Both the position numbers and the translations under genes were made by a program. From a virus (lineage: Duplodnaviria; Caudoviricetes): 33,629 nucleotides of DNA. The notes beneath the pieces were generated by a model that searched no databases, was not told where the DNA came from, and saw only the letters and a program-made list of their open reading frames with translations. The stretch is taken from positions 1-33,629 of the IMG/VR virus record IMGVR_UViG_3300038974_000531. One strand, given 5' to 3'. Below, in pieces: positions 1 through 33,627 of the stretch. Numbering within the stretch: position 1 is the first letter of the stretch; each line of letters opens with the position of its first letter.

Positions 1-2
1 AA

Positions 3-423: not shown

Positions 424-450
424 CATGAACAACAGAACAGAGGTGTGCGC

Positions 451-1169: not shown

Positions 1170-1172
1170 GCA

Positions 1173-6216: not shown

Positions 6217-6443
6217 TGGGCACCACGTGCCTGGGAAACCCGATCTACGAGACAGACCCCAACCTTCCGCCTTTGACTAAGGAGGAGGAAATCCTGCATG
6301 CAATGCGCGCCGGTATCTTCGATTGTGTTGAGGTGGGTTCGGACGGCAAGGATTACGTTGCCTCCGATGAGGATGGCCTGTACCATCCGCTGATGGAGGA
6401 CGGGTACCCCGATCTCTCCAAGAAGGTGCCGTTGCCGGCATGA
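6198..6443 (+). CDS. small acidic hypothetical protein coupled to MuF
   Basis: 81-aa ORF overlapping the MuF stop, AGGAG upstream, ends just before a terminator. Confidence 0.6.
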   Translation: MDTRRIVGTTCLGNPIYETDPNLPPLTKEEEILHAMRAGIFDCVEVGSDGKDYVASDEDGLYHPLMEDGYPDLSKKVPLPA

Positions 6444-6457
6444 GTAGAATGTGATTC

Positions 6458-6486
6458 AAAAGGAGGCGGAAACGCCTCTTTTTTTA
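6458..6486. terminator. intrinsic terminator, probably bidirectional
   Basis: AAAAG-GAGGCG-GAAA-CGCCTC-TTTTTTT between convergent genes. Confidence 0.85.
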
Positions 6487-7140
6487 TTGCTGTTTTTGCT
6501 GGTCAAACAATGCTTGGATATATGCCTTGGTCATTACTTTTTTGGTTTGATCTAACTGGCAGTATTCGTTCTCAATTTCTGATAGTATATCAACCTTATT
6601 TTTGAGCGATTTATTTTCAAGGTACATTTTATAGACACCAGGGAAAAGGATTTCAAAAGATTCCTGCGGGATATTTTCCTTCGGTGGTCGTTTCTGAATC
6701 TGGTCCGGCGTAATCTGCATCGGGCCTTTTCCTGTCAAAATCCAGCTCCGACTATAAAGTGTATTGCCTTCGAGCCTGCGGAGTGCGTCATATTCCGGCT
6801 CTTCGATATCATCTTCCCATTTTGCGTAATTCTCTGGATCAATAGTCATCATGTTGGATATTTGTGTCCGATCCCACCCGATAGTCCTGCGAACTAAGGC
6901 TAAGCGCTTACCTATAGTTTCTGGATATAAAAATATTTCGCCTTTTCCGAATATCAAATAGTTTGCATTTACAGAATATTTGGTCACTAAAAACTCAATC
7001 ACACTTTTAGGTATTTCCTTCTTTCCATTTTCAATTTCATTAATAGTGCTCTTTCCGATGCCTGAAGCCTCAGATAAAGCAGTCTGGCTTTTAAACCCCA
7101 ACCTTTCTCTAAGTTTAGCAAACTCTTCTCCAGAAAGCAT
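6484..7140 (-). CDS. prophage repressor with two tandem XRE-type HTH domains
   Basis: LRERLGFKSQTALSEASGIGKSTINEIENG...NYLIFGKG and RLALVRRTIGWDRTQIS...WILTGKG; only convincing minus-strand gene; divergent from a Ner/Cro-like gene; AT-rich. Confidence 0.8.
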   Translation of the reverse strand: MLSGEEFAKLRERLGFKSQTALSEASGIGKSTINEIENGKKEIPKSVIEFLVTKYSVNANYLIFGKGEIFLYPETIGKRLALVRRTIGWDRTQISNMMTIDPENYAKWEDDIEEPEYDALRRLEGNTLYSRSWILTGKGPMQITPDQIQKRPPKENIPQESFEILFPGVYKMYLENKSLKNKVDILSEIENEYCQLDQTKKVMTKAYIQALFDQQKQQ

Positions 7141-7163
7141 GATTCTCTCCTATTTGGCAAAAA

Positions 7164-7221
7164 GTCTTATTTTACGATTGACTTTTTCGCATATTAAGAT
7201 AAACTGTTCGTATGTTACGAA
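7164..7221. promoter_or_regulatory. three 15-bp operator-like sites overlapping a rightward sigma70-like promoter
   Basis: GTCTTATTTTACGAT (7164-7178), TTCGCATATTAAGAT (7186-7200) and palindromic TTCGTA-TGT-TACGAA (7207-7221); -35 TTGACT (7178-7183), 16 bp spacer, -10 TAAACT (7200-7205). Confidence 0.65.
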
Positions 7222-7287
7222 ATTAACTTTACTTTAATTATTGCGCTAGAAATTCATTTTTGTCTAGCGTCCAACAGGGAGGATATC

Positions 7288-7518
7288 TTGCCAAACACTT
7301 CACAACGCGATCGGGACGTTCATCTGAAGGTGAGTGTGATTCTTAAAAAGAGAAACATCACTCTCGATCAGCTGGCTAAAAAACACAAGGTCAGTCGGCC
7401 ATATATCTCTATGGTCATTATGGGCAGTAGGTCTTCAGCGGTAATGCGTCAGAAGTTAGCCGAAGACCTCGGGTGTAGGTCTTGGGAAGAATTACAAAAC
7501 TTGGAGGTGACAGTATGA
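7288..7518 (+). CDS. Ner/Cro-like HTH regulator
   Basis: LKKRNITLDQLAKKHKVSRPYISMVIMG; TTG start with GGAGG RBS; first gene of the early operon. Confidence 0.75.
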   Translation: MPNTSQRDRDVHLKVSVILKKRNITLDQLAKKHKVSRPYISMVIMGSRSSAVMRQKLAEDLGCRSWEELQNLEVTV

Positions 7519-8027
7519 GCATGATTTGCAGGCGTCTGTACAAGGTCCGCCATGGCAAGATCACCATGAACGACGGACGGTCTTACCAGGTTCCGTGTCT
7601 GCAGGATTCGGTGCTGGTGGTAGAAAGTTATTCGGAGCTGCTGCTGCTTTGCGAGATGAACGGCAAGGCGCTGGAGGAGTCCGAGGGCGTGGAGCTTTCT
7701 CCCTGCTCCTGCGTGAACGGGTGTCTGATCCGCAAGGATAAGACAGGACAGGCTTCCTGCCCGTTGGCCGATCGCCGCTATGTGATGGCAGACGACGATC
7801 TTGCCGTCACCCCCCCCCACGACAACGATCTGGAGTTCGGAAAGATAGTCCAGGAAGAACGGAAACGGCTGGGCCTTTCCATGTACCGCCTTGCCCAGTT
7901 GTCCGGGGTTTGTTCAACCACCATCCGGAACATCGAAGCCGGCATCCGTAGCACCGAGCGCACCAAGGCATTCGTCCGTGATGCCTTGAACGACTGCGCC
8001 CAGGGGAGGCTTGCATGCAACGGCTGA
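7515..8027 (+). CDS. Cys-rich N-terminal domain plus C-terminal XRE HTH
   Basis: FGKIVQEERKRLGLSMYRLAQLSGVCSTTIRNIEAG; ATG overlaps the upstream stop, GGAGG RBS. Confidence 0.65.
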   Translation: MSMICRRLYKVRHGKITMNDGRSYQVPCLQDSVLVVESYSELLLLCEMNGKALEESEGVELSPCSCVNGCLIRKDKTGQASCPLADRRYVMADDDLAVTPPHDNDLEFGKIVQEERKRLGLSMYRLAQLSGVCSTTIRNIEAGIRSTERTKAFVRDALNDCAQGRLACNG

Positions 8028-8266
8028 TCTCCCTTGTTTCCAGGAATGCGGACAAGGTCCTGCATGTGGTCTGCGCCTATGGTGCGACCGTCACCGCCGG
8101 CATCGTACTGCATTCGATCGGATGGGCGTTGTTGTCTGGGCTGGTGGTTTCCGTATTGAAGGAAGCCTACGACCAATGGTCTTACAAGGGCTGGTCCTGG
8201 GCTGATCTGGCTGCCGATGCGATAGGCATCGTCATGGCGTTTCTGATTCTCGCAATCGCGTTGTAG
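8015..8266 (+). CDS. small membrane protein (DKxLH...KE.YD...W.DL.AD motif)
   Basis: 83 aa, mostly hydrophobic; motif resembles small VanZ/YfiM-like phage membrane proteins. Confidence 0.55.
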   Translation: MQRLISLVSRNADKVLHVVCAYGATVTAGIVLHSIGWALLSGLVVSVLKEAYDQWSYKGWSWADLAADAIGIVMAFLILAIAL

Positions 8267-8268
8267 AG

Positions 8269-8475
8269 GTGAGTATGGCTTTGAATGTGAAGAAGTCCCA
8301 GGCGGCGATGGAAGTGATCCAAGCCGGGGAGAAGAAGGTGGTCGTGGTGCTGAACGAGTACAACTACGAACTGTTGACGGTATTGGCGGCATCCGGTGGA
8401 ACTACGGTCGAGCGGATGGTGGAGCATGCGACGCTGCAGATGCTGAACCAGCGGACGCTGGAGGGTGCCAGATGA
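8269..8475 (+). CDS. hypothetical protein
   Basis: 68-aa ORF tightly packed in the early operon. Confidence 0.5.
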   Translation: MSMALNVKKSQAAMEVIQAGEKKVVVVLNEYNYELLTVLAASGGTTVERMVEHATLQMLNQRTLEGAR

Positions 8476-8735
8476 AGAGCTGTGAATGTTTCGTACTGAT
8501 CCGTGAGGCCGGCTACAAGGTTCCCATCGCCGACTGCCTGGACTCCGCCGACAAGGAGAGCAAGTCCTACCTGCTGGCCCTGGCATCGAAAGACGGCAGG
8601 CAGCATGCACTGTCCCTGCGGTTCTGCCCGTTCTGCGGGAATGTCCTGCATGACATCAGCGAGGAGTCTGTGGACAGGAAGCGCAAGCAAGGCGTCGAGG
8701 TCCGTATCGGGACCGTCGAACGGAAGGAGGGTTGA
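8472..8735 (+). CDS. small Zn-ribbon-like protein
   Basis: CxC near the N-terminus and FCPFCG; ATGA overlap and GGAGG RBS. Confidence 0.55.
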   Translation: MKSCECFVLIREAGYKVPIADCLDSADKESKSYLLALASKDGRQHALSLRFCPFCGNVLHDISEESVDRKRKQGVEVRIGTVERKEG

Positions 8736-8736
8736 T

Positions 8737-8988
8737 ATGGCAGCAAGGAAGAAAGGCCGGCAGGTGGTAGTCACCTTGAGCACCGAGGAGTATATCAAGC
8801 TCTCGATGTTCGGAAGGATGTATGGCGAGAGTGTGGCCAAGATGGCCAAGCGATCGGTTGGAATGTACCTGGGGTATCTGGACAACCAGTTGAAAAAGGC
8901 TGCCGATCAGCGGCTGAAAGAGCTTGCCGAGCAAGGTGTGACCATCAGTGTGGGTGTCTCGCAGAAGGAGGCCAAGGATGGAGAGTAA
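8737..8988 (+). CDS. hypothetical protein, possible ribbon-helix-helix DNA binder
   Basis: AAGGAGG RBS; RQVVVTLSTEEYIKL beta-strand/helix pattern. Confidence 0.5.
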   Translation: MAARKKGRQVVVTLSTEEYIKLSMFGRMYGESVAKMAKRSVGMYLGYLDNQLKKAADQRLKELAEQGVTISVGVSQKEAKDGE

Positions 8989-9475
8989 GTGCAGGCATTG
9001 CAAGATCGGCACCTATGAGCACCAGGTTACCCGCTACAACCCGTCCAATGGTTCGGCGATCGGTATCGACCGGTGCATCGTCAAGGAGATCGAGGAGCTT
9101 TGGGCTTCCGGCATCCGTACAACCGGCAGTTGCTGCGGCCATGGCATCCTACCTGGCATGGTGAATGTGGTCGAGGCTGACATGGAGAAGATGCTTGCCC
9201 TTGGTTATATCGGCGGACGCAACCTGTACGGTGCTCCGACCTACGCCCTGCATGCCCAGTGTGGGACCATGGGCATAACGTTCGAGGATATCCGGTACCC
9301 CGAGCACCTGGGGCCGTTGGCCGACCAACCCATAGCGATCCTCTTGGAGGGACTGTCCCTCATCGAGGTGGCGCTGGTGACCGGCAACATTCGCCTGGCG
9401 CTCCGCTTCGAGCGATCGCTGGCGACGGCATTGCAACCCTACTTCAAGGAGGTAAGTGAGAAGTATGGCAAATGA
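8978..9475 (+). CDS. hypothetical protein with IDxCI...GIRTTGSCCGHG motif
   Basis: AAGGAG RBS before ATG 8978; Cys/His cluster. Confidence 0.55.
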   Translation: MESKCRHCKIGTYEHQVTRYNPSNGSAIGIDRCIVKEIEELWASGIRTTGSCCGHGILPGMVNVVEADMEKMLALGYIGGRNLYGAPTYALHAQCGTMGITFEDIRYPEHLGPLADQPIAILLEGLSLIEVALVTGNIRLALRFERSLATALQPYFKEVSEKYGK

Positions 9476-9677
9476 TTATCAAGACCAGTACGAGAAGGTG
9501 ACCCTTGAGTTCTCTTCCGACTTCATGAAGGAGCTGCGGGACCTGGTTGCCAATACCAGAACGCAGAGCGGTGCCACGGTCACTGTGGAAGAGTTCCTGG
9601 AGGTGCAGGTTGAGCAGATGGTTGAAGGGTTTCTGGAGATGATCCGAAAGAAGAGGGCTGAAAAAGATGGCAAATGA
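9465..9677 (+). CDS. hypothetical protein
   Basis: Packed ORF overlapping both neighbours. Confidence 0.5.
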   Translation: MANDYQDQYEKVTLEFSSDFMKELRDLVANTRTQSGATVTVEEFLEVQVEQMVEGFLEMIRKKRAEKDGK

Positions 9678-9966
9678 TTATGACTGCGCTTCCCAGCAAC
9701 GGCTGCTGAAGCTGATCGAGACTATGGCGGGTTCGGAGATCGACGGCCAGACGGCTGCCGATCTGGCGAGGAAGATGGAGGTGTCCACCACCGCCACCTT
9801 CCGGGACCTGCAGAACCTGCAGACTGCCTTGTGGGCGGAGCAGCTGGAGGACGGGCGCTGGCGCCTCACCCCCAATGCAGCGCGGCTCTTGAGGCGGATC
9901 ACCGACAACATCAACACGGCCATGCGCCGGATCAACAAGGTCCACCAGGACTACATGGGGGTATGA
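9667..9966 (+). CDS. IclR-like winged-HTH DNA-binding protein
   Basis: QQRLLKLIETMAG...TAADLARKMEVSTTATFRDLQNL...AEQLEDGRWRLT, a pattern common in Mu-like early regions. Confidence 0.7.
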   Translation: MANDYDCASQQRLLKLIETMAGSEIDGQTAADLARKMEVSTTATFRDLQNLQTALWAEQLEDGRWRLTPNAARLLRRITDNINTAMRRINKVHQDYMGV

Positions 9967-10343
9967 GGATGGCTAATGGCACACCGGAGAAAACAGACCC
10001 GCGAATAGAGCGTGACTATCAGATTTTCAGAAGGTTCCAGGATCTTGAGAAATTGTACAATGAACGGGGAATAGTTGATCTGAAAATTGATGATGCAAGG
10101 ATTGAGGCTGGAATCATTCTGTTTACACTCATCGCTGATTGTGAATCAGAGAAGGTGTTCGATTACAATCTTGACAGATTGCGTGTTTCTCGTTTTGAAG
10201 CAGAGTATTTTATGATGCTTGCTCTTCAACCGCTTCACGAAAGGCATCCAAAAACTGCAATCGTATGGGTTAAGAAGTTTTTTGCATGGCAGGAAAAATA
10301 TAGAACCGCCAAGAATGCTCGGTCTATGGAGGGTGGAAAATGA
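9963..10343 (+). CDS. AT-rich hypothetical protein
   Basis: ATGA overlaps at both ends; visibly lower GC than its neighbours. Confidence 0.55.
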   Translation: MRMANGTPEKTDPRIERDYQIFRRFQDLEKLYNERGIVDLKIDDARIEAGIILFTLIADCESEKVFDYNLDRLRVSRFEAEYFMMLALQPLHERHPKTAIVWVKKFFAWQEKYRTAKNARSMEGGK

Positions 10344-11350
10344 AAGCTGAAAAAATCACCAACCCGGCAACCAAGGAAGTTGACATCGATGTCAACTTTG
10401 AAGATGGAAGCAAGCCCAAATCGGACAACGTTGTCCGATTTGGAAACGACGGCAATACCTCCGGCCTGGTCGCACTGTCGAAGCAGGACCAACAGATCGA
10501 CAGCGTCTACGGCTTCATCGGGGAATACTCCTACGAGACCGATGTCTCCGGTCTGAAGGACGACCTTTCGGTTTCTGCGATGCGCATGCTGGCGGCCGGT
10601 TGCCGGCTGATCCGCATCAAGGAGCATGAGGAGAAGGGCAGGTTCATGTCTGCACTTGAGTCGGTTGGAATAGAGTACCGGGTAGCCAACAGGTTTATGA
10701 ACGCTGCAGCCAAGTTCGTCAACGACAAGGGGGCCGTGAAGTACCAGCGCCTTGCCCAGCTTAGTGTCACGAAAATCTATGACCTAGCCATGGAGGACGA
10801 CGAGCTGCTGAAGGAGCTGGAGGAAGGCCGCACGGTCGCCGGGCTGAAGCTTGCCGATGTGGATAGGATGAGTACCAGGGAACTTAGGGCGAAGCTGCGG
10901 GACATCAAGAAGGACAAGGCCGCATCCGAGGAGCTTGTGCGCCAGAAGAATGCGAAGATCGACGAGCTGGAGAAGAAGTTGATCGCCATGGAAGCCGAGG
11001 GCAAGCCGGCCGTCGACTGGTCGGCCCGATCGGCCGAGATACTCTCCGAGCTGAACAAGATTCTGATGGAGGCCTCCCAGCTCAACGGCCGGCTCAACGC
11101 CCTGGTGGACGAGATACACGGCATGGGGGAGACCGAGTGGACCAAGGAGGAGAGCGTGTGCCTGCAGCAGGCGAAGTTCGTGGCCTCCACGATCAGCGAC
11201 GACGCATCGGTCACTGTTGACCGGCTGGACTGGCTGGCGCCGAAGGTGAACGCCGCCTTCTTCCCGGGGCTGGACTTCGACCGCGGCCATGCCGACGAAG
11301 CCGACGAAGCCGACTACACCGTGGTCGGCGTCGAGGGGGAGGATGCGTGA
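10340..11350 (+). CDS. early protein preceding the transposase (DUF3102-like N-terminus plus coiled coil)
   Basis: AGCRLIRIKEHEEKGRF...GIEYRVANRFM...DVDRMSTRELR pattern and position. Confidence 0.6.
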   Translation: MKAEKITNPATKEVDIDVNFEDGSKPKSDNVVRFGNDGNTSGLVALSKQDQQIDSVYGFIGEYSYETDVSGLKDDLSVSAMRMLAAGCRLIRIKEHEEKGRFMSALESVGIEYRVANRFMNAAAKFVNDKGAVKYQRLAQLSVTKIYDLAMEDDELLKELEEGRTVAGLKLADVDRMSTRELRAKLRDIKKDKAASEELVRQKNAKIDELEKKLIAMEAEGKPAVDWSARSAEILSELNKILMEASQLNGRLNALVDEIHGMGETEWTKEESVCLQQAKFVASTISDDASVTVDRLDWLAPKVNAAFFPGLDFDRGHADEADEADYTVVGVEGEDA

Positions 11351-13038
11351 TGCTGCAGTCGTACCTACCGGTTATAGAGGCCGCCCCGCGAGGCGAGCGC
11401 GGGCGGATGATCGAGGACTTGAGCAGGCAGCTGGGGGTGAGCAAGGCCACCATCTACCGCAAACTTGACGAGGCCGGCTACTGCCAGGACCGCCAGAGGA
11501 GGGCCGACGCAGGCTCCACGGCGGTCGAGGAGCAGGCGCTTGCCGCCCTTGCCGCCTACATGAAGAGCGGCATCAGAAGCAACGACAAGGCCACCTTGGC
11601 CATCCCAACCGCCCGGCAGGTCTTGGAAGCCAGCGGGGTCGACTTCGGAGAGGTGACCAACTCCACCCTGGGCCGGCTGCTGCGCGAGCGCGGGCTGGAC
11701 GTGAAGACCCAGCAGGCGCCCGAGCCGTTCGTGCGGATGCGCAGCCTGTATCCCAACCACGTGCACCAGTGCGACCCGTCGGTCTGCCTGGTCTACTACC
11801 TTCCCAACGGCGGCCAGCACATCCTGGAGGAGCGCGAGGTGTACAAGAACAAGCCGTTTTTGTTGGGCAAGGAGAACCTCAAGGTGTGGCGCTACGTGCT
11901 GACCGACCACTACAGCGGCTCGATCTGCCACCGCTACTACCAGGTGGCCGGTGAGAACACCCTCACCCTCTGGGACTTCCTGCTGTACAGCTGGGCGAAG
12001 AAGGCCGATCCGCTGGATGCGTTCCACGGCCTGCCCGATCTGCTGGTCTGGGACAAGGGCAGCGCCAACTCATCCAAGGCGATCGCCAACGCGCTGAAGG
12101 GCCTGCGGGTGCAGACCTACGACCACAAGGTGGGAAACCCCAGGGCCAAGGGAAGCGTCGAGCGGAGCAACGACATTGTCGAGCGCCTGTTCGAGTCGCG
12201 CCTGAAGGCCCAGCCGGTGCGCAGCGTGGACGAGCTGAACGAGTATGCCGAGAAGTGGGACGCGCTGTACAACGCGGGCCTCATCAAGGGCTACGACAGC
12301 ACCCTGCGCCGCGCCAAGAGCAGCCGCCTTGACCTGTGGCTCACCATCCCGGTCGACAAGCTGCGCGAGCTTCCCGAGGGAGCGAGGAACCTTTTGGTGC
12401 CGGAGCCGGAGACCCGCCAGGTCCAGGGCGACTTGTCCGTCAGCTATGCGCACCCGCGCCTTGGGCGCAGCGGATCGTACAACCTGGGCAAGCTGCCGGG
12501 CATCCGTCCCAAGTTGGTGGTCAACGTGCAGCCGATCCTCACCGATCCCGATGGGGTGCTGCGCGTCAGCTACCAGTACCAGGGCGAGGAGATCACCGAC
12601 GAGATTTACCCGGTCCTCACCGACGAGGCGGGCTTCCCGCTGGACGCACCGGTGTGGGGGGTGGAGTTCAAGCGCCATCCGGACACCTACGTGCAGACGG
12701 CCGCCAAGAGCCTGGACGATCTGATCGGCGACGATAAGAAGCCGTTCGCCGGCTGGAACGAGGGCAACGGCATCGCCGCCCTGGATGCGATCCAAAGCAG
12801 CGACCCGTCGGTTGTGGCCATGCAGAAGACCGGCCGGCAGGCGACCCCGCCGCAAAGCCGCATCCGCATCTCCACCGTGGAGGCTGCCAAGGTGCTCAAG
12901 GCCCGCATGGGATGGTGGACGCCCGAATGCCTGCAGTATTTGCGCGACACCTATACCGACGGCGTGCCAGAGGCTGACATCGATGCGATCGAGCTGCGCC
13001 TTGGCGGGCAGAGGAGGCAGGCCGGATGTGTGGGTTGA
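11347..13038 (+). CDS. Mu-type DDE transposase
   Basis: N-terminal HTH (LGVSKATIYRKL), RRRADAG, HQCD...VWDKG...GNPRAKGSVER catalytic triad. Confidence 0.92.
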   Translation: MMLQSYLPVIEAAPRGERGRMIEDLSRQLGVSKATIYRKLDEAGYCQDRQRRADAGSTAVEEQALAALAAYMKSGIRSNDKATLAIPTARQVLEASGVDFGEVTNSTLGRLLRERGLDVKTQQAPEPFVRMRSLYPNHVHQCDPSVCLVYYLPNGGQHILEEREVYKNKPFLLGKENLKVWRYVLTDHYSGSICHRYYQVAGENTLTLWDFLLYSWAKKADPLDAFHGLPDLLVWDKGSANSSKAIANALKGLRVQTYDHKVGNPRAKGSVERSNDIVERLFESRLKAQPVRSVDELNEYAEKWDALYNAGLIKGYDSTLRRAKSSRLDLWLTIPVDKLRELPEGARNLLVPEPETRQVQGDLSVSYAHPRLGRSGSYNLGKLPGIRPKLVVNVQPILTDPDGVLRVSYQYQGEEITDEIYPVLTDEAGFPLDAPVWGVEFKRHPDTYVQTAAKSLDDLIGDDKKPFAGWNEGNGIAALDAIQSSDPSVVAMQKTGRQATPPQSRIRISTVEAAKVLKARMGWWTPECLQYLRDTYTDGVPEADIDAIELRLGGQRRQAGCVG

Positions 13039-14126
13039 AGACGCTTCTTGCCAAGGAAGGCATCACACAGGTGGAGCTTGCCGGCCATCTGGGATTGAGC
13101 AAGGCGGCGGTATGCCAGATCGCCAACTATGGGCAGTTCCCCAAGGGCCGCGAGGCCGAGACGAGGGATGCGATCAACAAGTTCCTGGACGCCCGAGGCG
13201 TACCGGTGAAGGATTTATGGAAAGGCGTCCGATCGGACGACGAGGAAGAAGCCAAGGAGGCATGCGTTATGTTGGGCATGAATGCGAAGAGACAGTTCAG
13301 ACTGGTACGTGACCCGTTCACCGATGATGTGACCGAGAGCAGGGACGTGTACCTGTCCGAGAGCGGCCGCTATGTGGCCGAGTACATGTACATGACGGCC
13401 AAGGCCGGCGGTATGCTGGCGGTGGTCGGCGAGAGCGGAAGCGGCAAGAGCACGCTGCGGCGCCTGCTGCTGGACCGCATCGACCGTGAGGGCCTCAAGA
13501 TCAAGGTGATCTTCCCCCGCTCCATCGACAAGGGCAAGCTCACCGCCTCCTCCATCTGCGATGCGATCGTCGCCGACTGCAGCGAGGACAGGCCGAAGCG
13601 CACCCTTGAGGCCAAGAGCCGGCAGATCGAGCGGGTGCTGACCGCATCGAGCAGGGCCGGATGGTCGCATGTGCTGATGATCGAGGAGGCCCACGACCTG
13701 GACGTGCGCACGCTGAAGTACCTCAAGCGGTTCTGGGAGTTGGAGGATGGCTTCAAGAAGCTGCTCTCGGTGATCCTGGTGGCGCAGCCGGAGATCAAGG
13801 GGATGCTGGACGAGAGCCGCAACCCCGAGGCGCGCGAGATCATCCGGCGCATGGAGGTTGCCGAGATCAGCCCGTTCGAGAACCCGGATGAATTGAAGGA
13901 ATACCTTACCCTCAAGTTCGCCCGTGTGGGCGTGAAGGCAGGCGAGGTGATGGACGAGGGTTGCTACCAGGCGATCCTGGACAAGCTGGTGAGGAAGACC
14001 CGCAGCGGGTACCGGTTGAACTACGCATACCCGCTTACGGTGAACAACATGGTCAAGAAGGCCATGAACACAGCCGCCGACATCGGCCAGAGCCTGGTGG
14101 ACGCGGAGACGATTGCAAGCATATAG
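13026..14126 (+). CDS. transposition ATPase (MuB/ExeA-like AAA) with N-terminal HTH
   Basis: Walker A GESGSGKS, Walker B LMIEEAH, directly after the transposase. Confidence 0.9.
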   Translation: MCGLKTLLAKEGITQVELAGHLGLSKAAVCQIANYGQFPKGREAETRDAINKFLDARGVPVKDLWKGVRSDDEEEAKEACVMLGMNAKRQFRLVRDPFTDDVTESRDVYLSESGRYVAEYMYMTAKAGGMLAVVGESGSGKSTLRRLLLDRIDREGLKIKVIFPRSIDKGKLTASSICDAIVADCSEDRPKRTLEAKSRQIERVLTASSRAGWSHVLMIEEAHDLDVRTLKYLKRFWELEDGFKKLLSVILVAQPEIKGMLDESRNPEAREIIRRMEVAEISPFENPDELKEYLTLKFARVGVKAGEVMDEGCYQAILDKLVRKTRSGYRLNYAYPLTVNNMVKKAMNTAADIGQSLVDAETIASI

Positions 14127-14140
14127 CAAGGGAGAGGAAT

Positions 14141-14776
14141 ATGGAAGATTACAAGTACAGGCAGACGATGAACGGGACCGAGTATTGGCTGGACCAGCGG
14201 GGCAGCCTGGTGCCCGCCGAGAAGATCGGCGAGCTGGACAAGCTGCGCGACGACGTGGTGCGCGAGATGCTGGGCGTTGCCCTGCCGCTCTCGGATGCCT
14301 TGAGGAAGGCCAAGGCAAGCGTGTACAGTACGCTGGACACCTTCCTGGCGATGAGCAGCGAGCAGTACGGTGTCAAGCGCAAGGGCACCAAGGGCAACGT
14401 CACCCTGCTCACCTTCGACGGCCGGTACAAGGTCGCCCTCTGCTACAACGATGTGTTCGCGTTCGACGAGCGGCTGCAGACCGCCAAGGAACTGATCGAC
14501 TCCTGCCTCATCCGCTGGGCCGACGGCGCTTCCGCCAATCTGGTGGCCGTGGTCAAGGAGGCTTTCCGGGTCGACAAGAAGGGCAAGCTGGACGTGAGGC
14601 GCATCCTTGAGCTGCGCCGCTATGAGATCCATGACGAGCAGTGGCGGCAGGCCATGGAGGCGATCAGCGACAGCATCACCGTGCAGAACACGCGCCGGTA
14701 TGTGCGCTTCTATGAGCGCCACGGGGAGGACGAGTGGAGGCAGGTTGCCCTGGACTGGTCCTCGATCACAGGGTAA
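14141..14776 (+). CDS. DUF3164 family protein (occupies the Gam position in many Mu-like phages)
   Basis: YWLDQRGSLVP, KGNVTLLTFDGRYKV, FDERLQTAKELIDSCL, AFRVDKKG motifs. Confidence 0.85.
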   Translation: MEDYKYRQTMNGTEYWLDQRGSLVPAEKIGELDKLRDDVVREMLGVALPLSDALRKAKASVYSTLDTFLAMSSEQYGVKRKGTKGNVTLLTFDGRYKVALCYNDVFAFDERLQTAKELIDSCLIRWADGASANLVAVVKEAFRVDKKGKLDVRRILELRRYEIHDEQWRQAMEAISDSITVQNTRRYVRFYERHGEDEWRQVALDWSSITG

Positions 14777-14781
14777 GGGGG

Positions 14782-15219
14782 ATGGCGATGAAGAGCAGCT
14801 GGCTGAAACTGATCCACGTGGCCAAGAGGCAGTGCAACCTGGACGACCAGAGCTACCGCGCCCTTCTGTCGGGGGCAGCCGGGGTCGACTCCGCAAGCGG
14901 CATCGAATCGGAGGCGCAGTTCAAGGCAGTCATGGACGCCTTCGGCCGCCTCGGCTTTGCCCGCAAGGACGGCAAGGTCTACTCGATTGACGACGACCAG
15001 ATGGCCAAGGCCTATGCCTTATGGTGCAACCTGCATGACTTGGGAGCGGTGGACAACCGCTCCTACGGCAGTTTCATGGCATGGGTGAAGCGCATGTATC
15101 CCCAGGACATTTTGCGCAAGGGCCAGAAGAGCCAGCTGATCGAGTCGCTCAAGCGCTGGGAGATTCGCGTGGACACGAAGCGGATGAACGAACTTGCAAA
15201 AGGGAGGATCAGCCGGTGA
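14782..15219 (+). CDS. gemA: GemA/gp16-like (DUF1018) protein
   Basis: LKLIHVAKRQCNLDDQSYRALL...LIESLKRW. Confidence 0.8.
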   Translation: MAMKSSWLKLIHVAKRQCNLDDQSYRALLSGAAGVDSASGIESEAQFKAVMDAFGRLGFARKDGKVYSIDDDQMAKAYALWCNLHDLGAVDNRSYGSFMAWVKRMYPQDILRKGQKSQLIESLKRWEIRVDTKRMNELAKGRISR

Positions 15220-15536
15220 GAAATGACATGGCAGCCGAGATGGTCGAGTCGGTGAAGAAGGTGGTCGGGGACGAGAGCCAGGCGACGCGCGTGGTGCGCC
15301 AGCTCCTGGCTGACTTTGGCGGTACGCAGGTGTACCTTCCAATGGTAGCGACTGCATTCCGCGACGAGCTGGAGGCCGAGGTGTACGACTCCTTCGACGG
15401 GTCCAACCAGCGCGAGATATGCACCCGCTACCAGATCAGCTTCACCACCCTGTACGCGATCATCAAGCGCGAACGTGAGAAGCGCATCGGTAAGCGCGAG
15501 GAGGACGCACAGGGCGTGCTGGATTTGACGGACTAG
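15216..15536 (+). CDS. Mor/C-family transcription activator
   Basis: FGGTQVYLP...VYDSFDGSNQREICTRYQISFTTLYAIIKR. Confidence 0.85.
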   Translation: MRNDMAAEMVESVKKVVGDESQATRVVRQLLADFGGTQVYLPMVATAFRDELEAEVYDSFDGSNQREICTRYQISFTTLYAIIKREREKRIGKREEDAQGVLDLTD

Positions 15537-15573
15537 TAATTTCATCACCTGGTCCACAGGATGCGCCTACGGC

Positions 15574-15594
15574 GTTCATAAACCGTTTATGAAC
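15574..15594. promoter_or_regulatory. perfect 21-bp palindrome, candidate protein-binding site
   Basis: GTTCATAAAC-C-GTTTATGAAC between the Mor-like gene and the late head operon. Confidence 0.55.
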
Positions 15595-15606
15595 CGGATT
15601 ACCAAC

Positions 15607-15644
15607 AGGGGTGACAAGCAGAATGCTTGCCACCCCTTCTCTTT
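15607..15644 (+). terminator. probable intrinsic terminator of the early/middle operon
   Basis: AGGGGTGACAAGCA-GAA-TGCTTGCCACCCCT (14-bp stem, one mismatch) followed by TCTCTTT. Confidence 0.6.
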
Positions 15645-15703
15645 GCCAAAAAAGTAAGGCGCATTACAAGGAATGTACGTGCGCAATGGTCCACTATGGC
15701 CCC

Positions 15704-16654
15704 ATGGCAGACAAGAACGTTTCACTGAATTCGTACTCGCTCACCTCCGACCCGCCGGCCTGGATGCTCCTGGTTCCGGCGGGTCTCGATGTGCCCGGCC
15801 GTGACGGCCGTTCATTCATCAATCCGGGTCCCTCCTCCCTCATCGACGCCTTCCGCTCCAATGGGGTGGACATCGTCGTCGACGTGGAGCACAGCAGCCA
15901 CACCCAGGCGGTGGAGGGCAAGCCCGCCCCGGCCTTCGGTTGGATCGTCGACCTTGAGGACAGAAGCGGCGAGCTGTGGGGGAAGGTGGAGTGGACCGAG
16001 GGCGGCAAAAACGCCGTCAGTTCTCGCGAGTACCGCTACTACAGCCCGGCCTACAGCTGCGATGCAGCGGCCAGGATCGTGCGGGTGGTTTCTGTCGGCC
16101 TCACCAATACGCCCAATTTGCGCCTGCCGGCGCTGAATAACCAAGGAGGGGATGTGATGGACAAATTCAAACAGGACGTTGCCGAGGCCATGGGCCTGAA
16201 GGCCGACGCCGCCGAACCCGATGTGATCGCCAAGGCCAAGGAGCTGGCGGGGGTCGTCTCGCTGAACCGTCAGCAGGACATGGTTCCCAAGACCGACCTC
16301 ACCCTTGCGCTCAACCGGGCGCAGACTGCCGAGACCGAGCTGGCCAACCTCAAGAAGGCCCAGTTCGAGGCCAAGAGGGACGAGCAGATTGACAAGGCGG
16401 TAGCCGACGGAAAGATCGCTCCGGCGAGCAAGGACTATTACAAGACTTCCTGCAACAGCGAGGAAGCCCTGGCCAAGTTCACCGAGTTCGTGGGGACGCT
16501 GCCCAATATCGTGACCAACGGCGAGCAGCCGCGTGCTGCCAATCCCGCAGGTGAGGTGGAGCTGAACGCCGAGCAGATCGCGTTCGCCGCCAAGCTCGGC
16601 ATCAACGCCGAGGATGCCAAGAAGTTCTACAAGGACTACAAGGAGAGTAAGTAA
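15704..16654 (+). CDS. prohead protease/scaffold (Mu gpI)
   Basis: VVDVEH, APAFGWI, LWGKVEWT, EYRYYSP, GLTNTPNL are Mu I protease motifs. Confidence 0.9.
   Translation: MADKNVSLNSYSLTSDPPAWMLLVPAGLDVPGRDGRSFINPGPSSLIDAFRSNGVDIVVDVEHSSHTQAVEGKPAPAFGWIVDLEDRSGELWGKVEWTEGGKNAVSSREYRYYSPAYSCDAAARIVRVVSVGLTNTPNLRLPALNNQGGDVMDKFKQDVAEAMGLKADAAEPDVIAKAKELAGVVSLNRQQDMVPKTDLTLALNRAQTAETELANLKKAQFEAKRDEQIDKAVADGKIAPASKDYYKTSCNSEEALAKFTEFVGTLPNIVTNGEQPRAANPAGEVELNAEQIAFAAKLGINAEDAKKFYKDYKESK
16157..16654 (+). CDS. in-frame internal scaffold protein (Mu gpZ-like)
   Basis: Strong AAGGAGG at 16143-16149 before an in-frame ATG right after the protease domain, as in Mu I/Z. Confidence 0.6.
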   Translation: MDKFKQDVAEAMGLKADAAEPDVIAKAKELAGVVSLNRQQDMVPKTDLTLALNRAQTAETELANLKKAQFEAKRDEQIDKAVADGKIAPASKDYYKTSCNSEEALAKFTEFVGTLPNIVTNGEQPRAANPAGEVELNAEQIAFAAKLGINAEDAKKFYKDYKESK

Positions 16655-17568
16655 TGGGTATCATCAAGAAAGAATTGTTGACCGACCTCTACGTCAATTT
16701 CTCGGGCCTCTTCAAGCAGGGACTTGCAAGCGCACCGTCGGTGTGGAAGAAGGTTGCCACCATGGTGCCATCCTCCGCGGCCACCACCGCCTACGGCTGG
16801 CTGGGCCGCTTCCCGCAGCTGCGCGAATGGGTGGGCGACCGTGTCATCAAGGATATGGTGGAGAACGCCTACATGCTGCCGAACAAGAAGTTCGAGGGCA
16901 CCGTTGCGGTGAGCCGCTCGGACATCGAGGACGACAACCTGGGCATGTATTCGCCTATCGTGCAGAGCATGGGCGAGGAGAGCGAACTGCACATCGACCG
17001 CAACGTGTTCTCCCAGCTGGGCCTTGGCTTGAGCGAGCTGTGCTACGACGGTCAGAACTTCTTCGACACCGACCACCCTGTGTACCCCAACCATGACGGT
17101 ACCGGAGTCGCCGTGTCGACAAGCAACATCATCAACCCGCTGGTGACCGACGGACCTGCCTGGTATCTTCTGGATGCCAGCAAGGTCATCAAGCCGCTGA
17201 TCTACCAGAACCGCAGCGCAGCGGAGCTTCAGACCATCAACGATCCGCAGAACGACGCCGTCTTCATGCGTGACGAATACCTCTATGGGGTACGCGCCCG
17301 CCGTGCGTTCGGCTTCAGCTTCTGGCAGATGGCCGTCATGAGCCGTGATGCGCTGAACGAGGAGAACTTCAACGCGGCCTACCAGGCGATGTGTTCCTTC
17401 AAGGCCGACGGCGGTGATCCCCTGGGCTTGCGCCCCACCATCCTGGTGGTGCCTCCCGCCCTGCGTGCCGATGCCAAGGCCCTTATCGAAGTGGAGCGCC
17501 TTGCTAATGGCGCATCCAACCCCAACTACAAGGTCGTCGAGGTTCTCGATACCGCGTGGCTGGCATAA
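16654..17568 (+). CDS. major capsid protein (Mu gpT family)
   Basis: YGWLGRFPQLREWVGDR, CYDGQNFFDTDHPV, WYLLDASKVIKPLIYQNR, GFSFWQMA. Confidence 0.95.
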   Translation: MGIIKKELLTDLYVNFSGLFKQGLASAPSVWKKVATMVPSSAATTAYGWLGRFPQLREWVGDRVIKDMVENAYMLPNKKFEGTVAVSRSDIEDDNLGMYSPIVQSMGEESELHIDRNVFSQLGLGLSELCYDGQNFFDTDHPVYPNHDGTGVAVSTSNIINPLVTDGPAWYLLDASKVIKPLIYQNRSAAELQTINDPQNDAVFMRDEYLYGVRARRAFGFSFWQMAVMSRDALNEENFNAAYQAMCSFKADGGDPLGLRPTILVVPPALRADAKALIEVERLANGASNPNYKVVEVLDTAWLA

Positions 17569-29314: not shown

Positions 29315-30232
29315 ATGGCAAATGTAGTACAGACACCCGTCTGGGAAGATGGCATCTACCAGATTGAAACAACCGATCCGGTGATGGGTGGGCCGGATGG
29401 CATCAGCAACAAGCAGGCGAAGCAGCTGGCGAATCGCACCCTGTATCTGAAGCAGCGCGCCGACGAGGTCGACGGCGCGAAAGGGGAATTCAACTCCCTG
29501 GATCAGCGGCTTGACCAGTATGACCTGTTCAGTCCGGATTCGATCAATGCACTGGCCGCAGCGGCCATGAAGGCGTTGCATTTGGGCGGAGGGGCTGCCG
29601 GCGAGATCACCAGGTTGAAGCAGGTTCTTACACAGAAGGGCGAGGTGACGATTGTCAATCGGGGCGTGGTTAAGGGATGCACGGTTACCAAGTCGGCGAG
29701 TGCCACCAGGAATCTGTCCCTAGCTACCGGGCTTTGCTTTTATGGCAGCCGCCTGGTGCCTGCAGCAGCGGCCGAGAATGTGGCGATCATCCCGTCCAAC
29801 CTTTCGGATGTGGCGGCTTCCTGCTACTGCTATCTGATCGAGGATGGTGGCGTGATGCGCATGATCTGCACGGAGATCGGGGAAGTTGTTCCGGATGTGG
29901 GCTTGCCCTTGTATCGGGTGAACATTCCGGCTAACAACACGTCGGCCAATGATCCGCAGGCTACCGCAGTCACGTTGACGGATATCCGCAGGATCGAGGC
30001 GAAGTGGCCCACCCTGTTCATCACCGCCCCGTATGCGAATATTGCGCTGCAGTATCCCTTTTTGAATGCCGACTACTCGGTGTCCCTGGATGTGATCGCC
30101 TATGAGGGCGGGGGGTTCCAGGAGGGTAAGATTTATGTGGGCGACCGTGCGGCGAACGGGTTCAAGATTTACATGAACGGCACAATCGACCAGGTCCAGG
30201 TTCGCTGGACGGTAAGCAAGAAGGAGGCCTAG
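29315..30232 (+). CDS. tail fibre protein
   Basis: N-terminus WEDGIYQIETTDPVMGGPDGISNKQAKQLANRTLYLK typical of myophage fibres. Confidence 0.75.
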   Translation: MANVVQTPVWEDGIYQIETTDPVMGGPDGISNKQAKQLANRTLYLKQRADEVDGAKGEFNSLDQRLDQYDLFSPDSINALAAAAMKALHLGGGAAGEITRLKQVLTQKGEVTIVNRGVVKGCTVTKSASATRNLSLATGLCFYGSRLVPAAAAENVAIIPSNLSDVAASCYCYLIEDGGVMRMICTEIGEVVPDVGLPLYRVNIPANNTSANDPQATAVTLTDIRRIEAKWPTLFITAPYANIALQYPFLNADYSVSLDVIAYEGGGFQEGKIYVGDRAANGFKIYMNGTIDQVQVRWTVSKKEA

Positions 30233-30233
30233 G

Positions 30234-30551
30234 GTGCTGGTGAAGAAGCTTGGAAAGGGTGACTATGCCGATTATCAACTGGATGGAACCGTGTTGACGA
30301 TTGGCGAGGACTCCATCGATGTGGCTGCAGTGCAGCGGGATGAGCAGGTAATCCACACCATCAAGGACGGTGAGGATTTTGTGGCAACTATTGAAGTGCC
30401 CCCCCGCACATACCACCAGGAGATCGATGATTCGGTGGTTCTGGAGGAAGGGGAAGAGGAACGAGAGGTTACCGTCATGGTGGCTGATCCGTTGGATATC
30501 GGCGCGGTGAGCATTACGCTTTGGCCGCTGAAGTTTGGCAAGGAGGAGTAA
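30234..30551 (+). CDS. small acidic protein between the fibre and the DGR target (possible adaptor)
   Basis: 105 aa, AAGGAGG RBS, packed operon position. Confidence 0.55.
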   Translation: MLVKKLGKGDYADYQLDGTVLTIGEDSIDVAAVQRDEQVIHTIKDGEDFVATIEVPPRTYHQEIDDSVVLEEGEEEREVTVMVADPLDIGAVSITLWPLKFGKEE

Positions 30552-30553
30552 AG

Positions 30554-31633
30554 ATGCCTACTATTTTCGTGAAGGATTCGTATCGGGCGGCTGTGGAAGC
30601 TGCATCCGGAGGACACCAGACGGTGCTCTATGATGACAAGGGTTTCCCTTCCATCATGAATGTGATCCCCAAGTTCAACATGGAGGATATGGACCCAGCC
30701 CTTGGCACCGGCGTACATCCTGCCTTCATCAAGGGCGGCGTACAGAAGTCCGAGATTTTTGTCGGTACTTATCCGTCGATCGTTGCGGATGACCGCGCGG
30801 TTTCCATGCCTATGGTCCCGGCTCTTGGCGGAAAGACATTCGACCAGGCAAGGACCTATTGCAAGAACAAGGGTCCCGGCTGGCATATGCTCACCAACCA
30901 CGAATGGGCGGCGATCGCGATCTGGTTGGCCAAGAAAGGCATCAAGCCGAATGGCAACACCAATTATGGCCGATCGCACAAGGCGCTCTATGAGACTGGT
31001 GTGCGTGAGGATGGCGCTGCCCCCGGACTGACTTCCGGAACGCCGTACACCATTCCTGGCTCCGGTCCCATTACCTGGAACCACGACCAGACGGCCAACG
31101 GGATTGTCGACCTCATCGGCAACCGGTCCACCTGGGTCGATTTGCTGAAACTGGTCGATGGCCGTGTCTACTGCCCGGCGGACAACAACTTCGATCTGGC
31201 CGAGGCTGATTGGCCGGCACAGAACGTGTTTTTCGATGTTTCTGCCGCATACAGCGACGACGGCGTGACGCAACAATATGGGTATCCGATCCTTAGCGAT
31301 GCCATCATCAACCGAACCGGAGCACCTGGTGTGATCGGCACTTATGACGATTACACGACGGTGGCCTGGGCGTCCCTGGTGAACAAGGCAGGATTTGTCA
31401 CCCCGGCGTTGATGAAGCAGTTGCTCATTGCTCCGATCGAGCCTGCAGGTGCCTCTGACTTCTCGAAGATGAGCGAAGGAACGCTCTACATTCGGAACAA
31501 TGGAGAGCGTTTGCCGCTTCGTTCTGGGCGCTACAGCTTCGGTTCCAATGCTGGGGCCGGCTACCTCGACCTGTACAACCCGCGGTCGTACCAGGTCGGC
31601 TCCATTGAGTTCCGGGTAGCTTTTTGTCTTTGA
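30554..31633 (+). CDS. DGR target protein: C-type lectin/FGE-sulfatase-like fold, probable receptor-binding protein
   Basis: HPAF, GWHMLTNHEWAAI, GIVDLIGNRSTWV, and a C-terminal RLPLRSG...IEFRVAF segment encoded by the variable repeat. Confidence 0.88.
   Translation: MPTIFVKDSYRAAVEAASGGHQTVLYDDKGFPSIMNVIPKFNMEDMDPALGTGVHPAFIKGGVQKSEIFVGTYPSIVADDRAVSMPMVPALGGKTFDQARTYCKNKGPGWHMLTNHEWAAIAIWLAKKGIKPNGNTNYGRSHKALYETGVREDGAAPGLTSGTPYTIPGSGPITWNHDQTANGIVDLIGNRSTWVDLLKLVDGRVYCPADNNFDLAEADWPAQNVFFDVSAAYSDDGVTQQYGYPILSDAIINRTGAPGVIGTYDDYTTVAWASLVNKAGFVTPALMKQLLIAPIEPAGASDFSKMSEGTLYIRNNGERLPLRSGRYSFGSNAGAGYLDLYNPRSYQVGSIEFRVAFCL
31508..31622 (+). repeat. DGR variable repeat (VR)
   Basis: 115-bp ungapped match to 32065-32179 with 12 mismatches, all opposite TR adenines. 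Confidence 0.97.
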
Positions 31634-31681
31634 TAATCTGACCTCTGATTTCTGGTAATCTGGCATATAGGGAGTTGGTAC

Positions 31682-32035
31682 ATGACCGAGGATTTGAGAA
31701 TTTTTCAGAAGTGGACTGACGCCACCGTAGAAGCCTGGGAAGTATTGAAGAAGTATCCGAAGGAGGAAAAGTTCATTCTGGCCAACATGACGCGCGAGAG
31801 CATTTTGATGATCGGAACGCTGATTGATAGGGTGAACGTTGCCAGGGGGTCCGAAGCGAAGCTTAGGCTGGTTGAGGACCTGGATACGCAGATCAGCAAG
31901 GTGAAAATGCTTTTTCACCTTGCTGTTGAGCTGAAGTACATTTCTGTGAAGACTTACGGCTTTATGACAGGAAAATTTGTTGAGATCGGCCGCCTGCTTG
32001 GTGGATGGAAAAAGACCATTGCAGGCAGCCGATAA
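31682..32035 (+). CDS. avd: DGR accessory variability determinant (Avd, four-helix bundle)
   Basis: 117 aa; KYPKEEKFILA and EIGRLLGGWKK motifs; lies between VR and TR. Confidence 0.9.
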   Translation: MTEDLRIFQKWTDATVEAWEVLKKYPKEEKFILANMTRESILMIGTLIDRVNVARGSEAKLRLVEDLDTQISKVKMLFHLAVELKYISVKTYGFMTGKFVEIGRLLGGWKKTIAGSR

Positions 32036-32039
32036 TTTT

Positions 32040-32335
32040 AGGGTTATGGCTGGTACGGATGTTCCGTTTGCCGCTTCGTTCTGGGAACTACAACAACGGT
32101 TCCAATGCTGGGGCCGGCTACCTCAACCTGAACAACCCGCGGTCGAACCAGAACGGCAACATTGAGTTCCGGGTAGCTTCATCCCCGTCTACTGGAAGCC
32201 GATGCCTTACGGGGCTTCGGACATAGTGTAGGGGAAAAAGGAGCTATAATCCTTCCCGCAAGGGAAAAGATAAACCAGACTTGGGCGACAAGTAGCTAAC
32301 GCCAAAGGCCGCAGCAAAAGCCGCCCAAGTTCTTT
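32040..32335 (+). ncRNA. putative structured DGR template RNA (TR plus flanks/spacer)
   Basis: Long-range helix 32041-32051/32242-32252, GCAA-tetraloop hairpin 32253-32266, 9-bp inverted repeat 32279-32287/32322-32330. Confidence 0.6.
32065..32179 (+). repeat. DGR template repeat (TR)
   Basis: AAC-rich copy of the VR (9 AAC + 1 AAT in the target frame) between avd and RT. Confidence 0.97.
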
Positions 32336-32344
32336 TTGAGAGCC

Positions 32345-33547
32345 ATGTCAAAACGAATAGGAAATTTATGGGAACCGATTTGTGAGTTTGAGAACCTGTA
32401 CAACGGGTATCTGAACACCAGGAAGAGACGCCGGTATCATAAGTCGATTCTCCGGTATACGGCCAATCTTGAGGAGAACCTGTATGATCTGCATGACCAA
32501 TTCGTTAACCTCACCTGGCATCCGAGCATGTCGGTGGTCAAGACGGTATTTTGGCCAAAGTGCCGGATCATCACCGCGCCGGTGGTGGCCGACCGTGTCG
32601 CATTCCATTCCATCGTCGATGTGATCGAGCCGTATTTTGAGAAGAAATTCCTGTTCCATTCATATGCCTGCAGGTGCAAGAAAGGCACCCACAAGGCCGT
32701 GAAGGCCGTCCAGCATCATGTGTACGGTCTGCAGCGCTGGGAGGGTGGAGGATACGTTCTGAAGGCCGATATACAGAACTACTTCGGAACCATCGACCAC
32801 CAGAAGCTGAAGAAGATCATCCGCAAGACACTCAAGGATAAGCGGCTGCTATCTGTCCTGGACTCCGTCATCGATGAGGTGGTCATTTCTCCGGAGATAC
32901 TCAAGCGGATATTGAGCAAAGCCTTGAAAGATCGCGAGGCTGTGCGCTGCTTTGATGTCATCATCGATGCCGGCAATCTGAACGAGCGGATGCTGCAGCG
33001 CATGATCCGCAAGTACATCACCAGAAGGCCCATGCTGAACTTCCTGGACAGGATCATCTTTGCTGTATGCCACCCGGAGGTAGGATTACCCCTGGGCGCT
33101 CTTACAAGCCAGCTCTTCGCTAATGTGTACCTGGACCAACTGGATCACTATGTGAAGGAGGTGCTGCAGGTGAAGCATTATTTCCGCTATATGGATGACT
33201 TCATCATCCTGTCCACATCGAAGGCGTACCTGCGTGATATCCTGGGAAAGATTGATGCCTACCTGCAGGAGGAATTGGCCCTCAAGCTCAACCCGAAGAC
33301 CTCGATATTCCCGCTGCATAAGTTCATAGATTTCTGCGGGTACCGGATACGGGCCGACAGATTGACGCCCCGGAAGAGGAACGTGGTAACGGCCAGACAC
33401 CGACTGAAAAAGCTCAATAACGAGGTCCTGGATGGCGCTATACCGTTCTCAAAGTTCCGGGCTAGTCTTATGTCGTTCCTGGGATATGTGAAGCACTGTA
33501 AGGCCTCTACAACCGTCCAGCACATGCTGGAGGAATTGAAAATGTGA
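32345..33547 (+). CDS. DGR reverse transcriptase
   Basis: SYACRCKKGTHKA, LKADIQNYF (motif A), GLPLGALTSQLFANVYL (motif B), RYMDDF (motif C), IDFCGY. Confidence 0.96.
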   Translation: MSKRIGNLWEPICEFENLYNGYLNTRKRRRYHKSILRYTANLEENLYDLHDQFVNLTWHPSMSVVKTVFWPKCRIITAPVVADRVAFHSIVDVIEPYFEKKFLFHSYACRCKKGTHKAVKAVQHHVYGLQRWEGGGYVLKADIQNYFGTIDHQKLKKIIRKTLKDKRLLSVLDSVIDEVVISPEILKRILSKALKDREAVRCFDVIIDAGNLNERMLQRMIRKYITRRPMLNFLDRIIFAVCHPEVGLPLGALTSQLFANVYLDQLDHYVKEVLQVKHYFRYMDDFIILSTSKAYLRDILGKIDAYLQEELALKLNPKTSIFPLHKFIDFCGYRIRADRLTPRKRNVVTARHRLKKLNNEVLDGAIPFSKFRASLMSFLGYVKHCKASTTVQHMLEELKM

Positions 33548-33564
33548 ACGAACTGTTTTACACA

Positions 33565-33627
33565 GTGAAAGATTTTTTAGGGGAGAAATATCTCACGCAG
33601 AGGGCGCGAATTTCGCACGCGGCTACA
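33565..33627. repeat. candidate Mu-type right end with transposase-binding repeats
   Basis: AAATATCTCACGC (33586-33598) and GAATTTCGCACGC (33608-33620) 22 bp apart, a similar inverted copy at about 33565-33576, terminal ...CTACA. Confidence 0.5.

Follow-up and report, generated by a model that had tools for sequence, protein, structure and literature searches.

A transposable prophage with a very likely active diversity-generating retroelement at its right end

The pairing of diversity-generating retroelements (DGRs) with transposable phages is reportedly named already in the title of a 2013 work by Toussaint. It has been published for two systems, namely the Faecalibacterium phage Mushu, which is transposable and carries an active DGR whose target is a Hoc-like capsid protein (PMC5883640, in the part of its text available), and the Bacteroides hankyphage, also transposable, whose active DGR targets a very large tail fibre and which makes 5-bp duplications (PMC6199706 and PMC12135933, likewise partial texts). 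The present analysis concerns a DGR at the right end of a phage genome (Duplodnaviria; Caudoviricetes) read from the IMG/VR virus record IMGVR_UViG_3300038974_000531, positions 1 to 33,629; this entire record of 33,629 bases is referred to here as the window.

In Bordetella phage BPP-1, a GC hairpin of 7-10 bp with a GRNA loop is needed 4-34 bp after the variable repeat (VR), and Guo et al. put this hairpin forward as a conserved requirement (PMC3240598, in the excerpted text). The DGR target of a Thermus aquaticus prophage, TaqVP, is described in the accessible portion of PMC6328139 as a monomeric C-type-lectin (CLec) protein of the FGE type, with exposed variable residues that form one site, and the available sections of Benler 2018 count 57 phage targets of TaqVP type. 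The majority of viral DGR targets are predicted tail proteins, and the route of the DGR complementary DNA (cDNA) to and into the VR is presented as still poorly understood in the published texts, so far as these were accessible.

The cassette and the variation of its repeats

In the window, a transposable prophage carries at its right end an intact BPP-1-type DGR, whose VR differs between near-identical phages almost only at adenines of the template repeat (TR); the element is likely cis-primed and retrohoming, and would diversify the predicted CLec face of a likely fibre-mounted host-recognition protein. Its parts are the following:

30554..31633, plus strand: DGR target, 359 aa, TaqVP-family CLec (FGE subtype) fold, from profile and fold matches
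31508..31622, plus strand: VR, codons 319-356 of the 359-codon target gene
31682..32035, plus strand: avd, matching PF22296 bAvd (E 1e-14, 55 bits against a cut-off of 40) and phrog_3206
32065..32179, plus strand: TR, a gapless match to the VR
32345..33547, plus strand: DGR reverse transcriptase (RT), 400 aa, with RVT_1, phrog_1423 (E 3e-110) and YMDD

The TR and the VR align over 115 bp without gaps, and similarity is lost immediately outside this segment on either flank. All 12 of their differences fall at TR adenines (six to T, four to G, two to C), for which the random expectation is P = 1.6e-9. An earlier examination of the sequence alone (the sequence-only reading) had claimed this alignment, which was reproduced to the base, and recomputation returned its further counts: eight AAC codons altered in the VR (to CGC, AGC, TTC, GAC, TAC, TAC, GTC and TCC), 26 adenines and 10 AAY codons in the TR, and no stop-capable codon in the target frame, against three and one in the remaining two frames. 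Its estimate of 15^10 (about 6e11) protein variants is correct for the AAY codons (5.8e11), and the ceiling rises to 5.9e14 when five four-way codons are counted.

The VR thus lies at the 3' end of a coding gene, facing an AAY-rich and stop-proof TR, with an accessory avd gene between them. BPP-1 and the Thermus aquaticus prophage DGR show this same target-avd-TR-RT order, avd and the RT gene are both open frames with family matches, and the YMDD motif is intact; the BPP-1-type architecture and the intact Avd and RT that had been proposed are therefore all present, down to a bRT-like RT. That the repeats could be a chance match, an ordinary duplication or an assembly artefact is scarcely credible. 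The window is a metagenomic contig, as such an origin would have it, but the adenine bias speaks against chance, and the same layout in the independent assemblies L001, L002, G049 and G050 and in the isolates Bise and BalMu-1 refutes an artefact.

Evidence for ongoing diversification comes from close relatives of the target. Its 90% cluster has 32 members, and the 15 that were compared carry 14 distinct VRs, with 1-10 differences across the other 318 residues. Between the window and the near-identical L001, 15 of the 115 VR bases differ, against 0/115 in the TR and 2/954 in the rest of the target (L003 has a VR and statistics identical to those of L001, and the two were scored once). Adenine-specific variation in related phages, to which the sequence-only reading had looked as a sign of activity, is seen when each VR is set against its own TR: 11 of 11 differences lie at adenines in L001, whose TR is identical to that of the window, and 13 of 13 in L002, which has two non-A changes common to its TR and VR. 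The TR is thus invariant while the VR varies across populations, and two related target clusters are equally variable, with distinct C-termini in 5/5 members, the figure found for target cluster P0002, and in 9/10.

Variation was also found within single sequencing runs. The comparison covers contigs from four of the 23 runs that contain the element, with the small-share RNA runs X22 and X23 left unused. The VR has 20 variable places, 19 of them at TR adenines and one elsewhere, so that the proposed confinement to TR-adenine positions holds in these contigs with a single exception; nine places vary in the other 986 bases. Runs X2 and X5 each contain more than one VR allele. In X2 the two differing contigs both begin upstream of the VR, and in X5 both extend beyond its end; as they are anchored outside the repeat, the variants are VR alleles and not TR copies.

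Given that the VR differs between near-identical phages and inside single runs, mutagenesis appears to be recent or ongoing. The "past adenine mutagenesis" of the sequence-only reading was right as to mutagenesis, and its "past" is too weak. The DGR is real and intact, and on this comparative evidence it is very likely active.

Reverse transcriptase, DGR RNA and target site

The best match of the RT in the PDB is the BPP-1 bRT, 8UB7 (sequence E 4e-33; fold template modelling (TM) score 0.90 over the target), which stands far above group II intron RTs among solved RT relatives. This places the protein in the DGR clade. Its catalytic aspartates are intact, D142 and YMDD being invariant columns, and it carries the SQ signature after motif 4. 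One segment of this RT is repeated:

32795..33073, plus strand: three tandem 31-aa helix-hairpin copies, RT residues 151-243, between motifs 3 and 4

The repeated segment is the one termed RT3a. Its units share 8-10 of 31 residues pairwise, each is modelled as a helix hairpin with a predicted local distance difference test (pLDDT) value of about 90, and the repeat adds 62 residues to the window RT; most relatives have a single copy. Among 121 RTs (the window and its 120 best hits), 113 have the short spacing, three are triple (the window, its cluster representative and P0150), one is five-fold (P0155) and four fall outside this pattern. A search with the repeat region alone returned two clusters with repeats among 176 candidates. 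None of 36 RT matches was expanded in 78 viral loci and three isolates, and in 80 genome loci the figure was 1/78 (L090), 11 having shorter, non-repetitive loops.

The three expanded RTs group together with branch support of only 86/73, at which a single origin of the repeat is not established. A link between the repeat and the loss of the hairpin after the VR is unsupported, as the hairpin-less viral loci had no RT match above normal spacing. The tripled hairpin most probably extends the RT surface in a way that the enzyme tolerates. Such RTs, which accommodate 62 to 124 additional residues next to active-site motifs, offer natural variants for tests of the homing step and point to a possible fusion site in DGR RTs; a literature search turned up no account of repeats of this kind in DGR RTs.

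Three further RTs were recorded. A related DGR RT with five helix-hairpin copies is represented by P0155 and P0286, and the target cluster P0002 occurs on contigs of matching lengths. In the 543-aa RT P0158, some 200 residues occur twice in almost identical form, which is probably an assembly artefact. The RT of a second Sphaerochaetaceae transposable prophage (L114, 10001-11012) has its N-terminal matches in separate frames and may be frameshifted.

The RNA that would serve the RT has two predicted parts in addition to the TR:

32040..32051, plus strand: upstream strand of the predicted stop duplex, pairing with 32242-32253
32180..32344, plus strand: spacer RNA, from its fold, a duplex scan and its layout against the cryo-electron microscopy description of BPP-1

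The spacer RNA elements of BPP-1 are described in the available part of bioRxiv 10.1101/2023.10.23.563531. In the window, the predicted elements are a UACG-capped stem-loop, the duplex strand, a short stem-loop, an A-run and a final stem-loop, which would supply both the stop duplex and the Avd-binding stem-loop of a DGR RNA. The stop duplex has 12 bp, and none of 30 shuffles was as good; one of its G-U pairs is G-C in L001 and L002, and in 26 of 37 loci, the window included, it beats 29 or all 30 of the shuffles. The priming adenine would lie near 32239, as inferred from this layout. Counts from a promoter and terminator scan were no higher than chance.

Judging from the sequence and from BPP-1, an RNA made of the avd end, the TR and the spacer would fold round the RT and an Avd pentamer, the TR would be copied from the priming adenine with errors at A, and cDNA synthesis would stop at the duplex. 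The cDNA would then replace the VR by a route that does without the BPP-1-type GC hairpin. The monomeric target may be held on a 305-aa fibre, perhaps via a 105-aa protein, as the conserved trio of genes described below suggests, and new VR variants would alter receptor binding.

The target site after the VR is not of the BPP-1 type. No GC hairpin was found there in the window: the DNA folds at -1.9 kcal/mol, and 198 of 200 shuffles fold as well. The following feature lies just after the target stop codon instead:

31637..31662, plus strand: four TCTG direct repeats with spacings of 7, 7 and 8

Of the 78 related viral loci in which both features were surveyed, 14 were set aside because they lacked the C-terminus or were too short; a further 14 did not extend far enough for RT presence to be judged, 12 were without RT and 38 had one. 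Among these 38 RT-bearing loci, 66 bases contain at least two TCTG in 27, against a background of 2.6%, and a perfect hairpin of at least 6 bp is present in 24, with several others near-perfect; the GC hairpin is thus common in the relatives and not universal. By eye, six hairpin-less loci (L017, L020, L022, L026, L036 and L044) retain the repeats and an A-biased TR. The TCTG repeats perhaps mark the site for homing, or some of them could serve as spare stop codons, as many read CTGA; a literature search found no DGR paper containing TCTG.

A more far-reaching proposal, conceivable but rather doubtful, is that this DGR lineage homes without a GC cruciform via the TCTG repeats, and that the Sphaerochaetaceae RTs stack one, three or five basic hairpins into a nucleic-acid-binding arm. 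If true, this would offer a natural series of cis-elements and proteins for dissecting the unsolved step of cDNA integration. Even apart from this, a hairpin-free diversifying element is a natural variant on which the homing step can be tested, and no published description of either the RT helix-hairpin repeat or the hairpin-free target site was found. The sequence-only reading had noted neither of the two.

Two side observations touch the same region. The longest inverted repeat of the window is a perfect 14-bp one with a 4-base loop inside avd (31894-31925); the next-longest has 9 bp, and none of at least 12 bp arose in 20 shuffles. It is kept in L001 and has one pair broken in L002. As a substitute cruciform it is doubtful, lying 272 bases from the VR with a loop that is not GRNA, and the idea is further weakened because L002 diversifies despite the broken pair. 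In addition, ten loci (L019, L023, L035, L055, L063, L072, L077, L081, L083 and L086) have a target-family gene with no RT behind it and mostly no hairpin, and represent phages that keep the protein without a linked DGR.

Several of these observations weigh against an active element in the window. Run X1, which may be its source, has a single VR allele, and the hairpin required for efficient BPP-1 homing is absent. The within-run data are contigs, which lose rare variants, and their co-occurring alleles may belong to separate strains. Furthermore, A335P, I351C and F353C in cluster members are not derivable from the adenines of this TR, although A335P is present in the TR of L002 itself. It could be supposed that the DGR was once active in the lineage, is silent in this copy and shows only inherited VR differences; the one allele of X1, the missing hairpin and the large insertion in the RT would all agree with it. 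This is nevertheless very improbable, since the near-identical phages all share the missing hairpin and the insertion and yet have 14 distinct VRs among 15, X2 and X5 each hold several alleles, and all reading frames are intact.

Target protein and carrier phage

The target matches TaqVP (PDB 5VF4) over its full length, with a profile E of 8e-121 and a Foldseek TM of 0.91 at 39% identity; TvpA and Mtd rank next, far behind. The structure model (pLDDT 94.5, pTM 0.93) gives the CLec fold that the sequence-only reading had expected, so that the whole length is predicted to be one TaqVP-type CLec domain of the FGE subtype. Two genes stand directly before it:

29315..30232, plus strand: short tail-fibre-like protein, 305 aa, first of the conserved trio, from PHROG and Atlas matches
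30234..30551, plus strand: 105-aa protein, directly before the target, phrog_8734

The N-terminus of the 305-aa protein matches the tail-fibre PHROGs 3100 and 4209, its nearest Atlas cluster is "putative tail fiber" (score 0.98), and it is 45% identical to the Bise gene at the equivalent position. No solved-structure relative was found for the 105-aa protein, which is perhaps a candidate adaptor between fibre and target. The target closes this trio, which stands where the baseplate block ends. Upstream DNA was sufficient in 73 related loci, 35 of which served to build the profile of the small gene; 48 of the 73 have both upstream genes, 21 neither and four only one. Such neighbours place the target, likely, at the tail, and it is quite probably a host-receptor adhesin.

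The virion location and receptor binding of the target, and with them the host-range variation proposed in the sequence-only reading, are read from gene context, and there are points on the other side. The sections of Benler 2018 available give the TaqVP homologues no settled role, TaqVP is without Mtd's trimerising domains (PMC6328139, accessible portion), 21 of the 73 loci lack both upstream genes, and Mushu's target is a capsid decoration protein (PMC5883640, partial text). These facts would suit an active DGR whose target is no receptor adhesin and is instead a virion decoration or a binder expressed by the lysogen, directed at matrix, a competing phage or a host protein. Such a role would also agree with TaqVP being a monomer of no assigned function, and with phiARM81mr, in which a homologous domain forms the end of a longer protein encoded next to the major capsid gene. 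It is unlikely, given that in the window and the 48 loci the target directly follows the tail-fibre-like gene and its small partner, and that no other receptor-binding candidate was found among 49 scanned open reading frames (ORFs). No virion-proteomics paper on the target family was found in the literature. The conserved fibre/small-gene/target trio suggests a testable explanation of the way in which monomeric TaqVP-type proteins are displayed.

The carrier is a transposable phage, with genes for a DDE transposase, its ATPase, GemA, Mor and Mu-type head proteins:

11347..14126, plus strand: DDE transposase (11347-13038; phrog_310, E 1e-65) and AAA transposition ATPase (13026-14126; phrog_296, E 7e-57)
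33551..33627, no strand: phage right end, three transposase-site-like repeats and terminal CA

Only 80 bases separate the RT stop codon from the right end at 33627. L003 departs from the window exactly past this base and enters a host AraC gene, and the X1 contig ends at it. The left end is seen only in L007, a relative in which it precedes window base 1 by about 680 bases; this gives a whole phage of about 34.3 kb, and the end-site repeat is common to both ends. TG...CA ends, repeated sites and host DNA directly beyond them are thus all found. An exact right-end pattern had no match in viral_contigs, and a transposase-only query found no close relative in genome_contigs. In L003 (13005-13760) the right end splits the host AraC regulator, a Mu-style insertional mutation, beside a family-4 glycosidase and a sugar ABC transporter operon.

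A related prophage that lies whole in G049 has TG...CA ends and a 6-bp duplication; its RT is triple, the hairpin is missing, its genes are ordered as in the window, and its transposase is 58% identical to that of the window. A 6-bp scar is of the B3/Tn552 type (PMC8705779, in the text available), and this relative points to that type rather than to Mu proper; the "Mu-like transposable phage" of the sequence-only reading stands as to transposition. The early block also lies mid-genome, and no gin or mom was found, with no invertase or methylase among the 49 scanned ORFs (of 157 listed). From 1 to 17568, lysis, terminase, portal and F genes stand at the left, followed by the repressor and the early/transposition block, and then protease, capsid and tail. 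Misassembly was rejected as the source of this unusual order, because L005 and L006 both run from F into the repressor region, and the order recurs over its full length in G049 (C1 2307113-2325195, about 55% identity).

Near-identical target, RT and capsid proteins are known from uncultured Sphaerochaeta, and G049 is a Sphaerochaetaceae chromosome; the host is likely one of the Sphaerochaetaceae of sludge and bioreactors. No title joining Sphaerochaeta with a DGR or prophage was found in the literature.

The DGR was confirmed to lie distally at the right end, following the tail genes, with gin and mom unseen. The sequence-only reading had further cast the cassette as a stand-in for Mu's invertible G segment, and this idea is weakened. 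A co-occurrence search, made with this transposase family only, found the family in five of 46 longer records of 79 viral loci and in five of 19 near-complete ones, and it also matched 6/14 control genomes. DGR and transposase do therefore co-occur, as the survey it proposed might show, and the target family is nonetheless present in 14 of the 19 near-complete records without a match to this transposase family, which makes the cassette a general tail-end module. The analogy to the G segment is positional.

Comparison with known systems

The DGR of BPP-1 (mtd-avd-TR-brt; PDB 8UB7) is alike in gene order, A-specific TR/VR differences, a C-terminal VR on a CLec fold, Avd, RT fold and a spacer-RNA layout with a stop duplex and a UNCG stem-loop. 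It differs in its trimeric Mtd, against the single-domain TaqVP-type target of the window, in its hairpin after the VR, and in an RT of 328 aa, against 400 aa with the tripled hairpin; the window, moreover, is a transposable prophage of myovirus type. The Thermus aquaticus prophage DGR (TaqVP, 5VF4; PMC6328139, accessible portion) has a full-length homologous target and the same cassette order, and differs in VR alphabet and host.

Mushu and the hankyphage share replicative transposition and VR variation, which was shown there experimentally, and differ in their gut hosts and their targets. With the window, this known pairing now includes a phage that is likely of Sphaerochaetaceae, and the population evidence that its DGR is active is good. 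This element or its relatives may already be entered in the DGR catalogues that supplement PMC8144416 and PMC5758913.

Finally, near their right ends Pseudomonas phage Bise (OR683401.1) and Bacillus phage BalMu-1 (KP063903.1) carry the small gene together with target, avd, TR and RT; they show A-specific TR/VR differences, and differ from the window by a hairpin after the VR and a single-copy RT segment. Bise also has the fibre gene, transposase, ATPase, terminase and portal, the transposase and the ATPase each being 37% identical; its left half is inverted, not rearranged, its head genes are split at the same point as in the window, and a DNA adenine methylase stands behind the RT, in the position of Mu's mom. 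In BalMu-1, lysis genes follow the RT. These intact DGRs (Bise, L088 31905-37825; BalMu-1, L087 4649-7734) are annotated merely as hypothetical, four-helix-bundle and RT genes, and a literature search found no paper on them. As both phages are cultured, they are ready models for virion proteomics.

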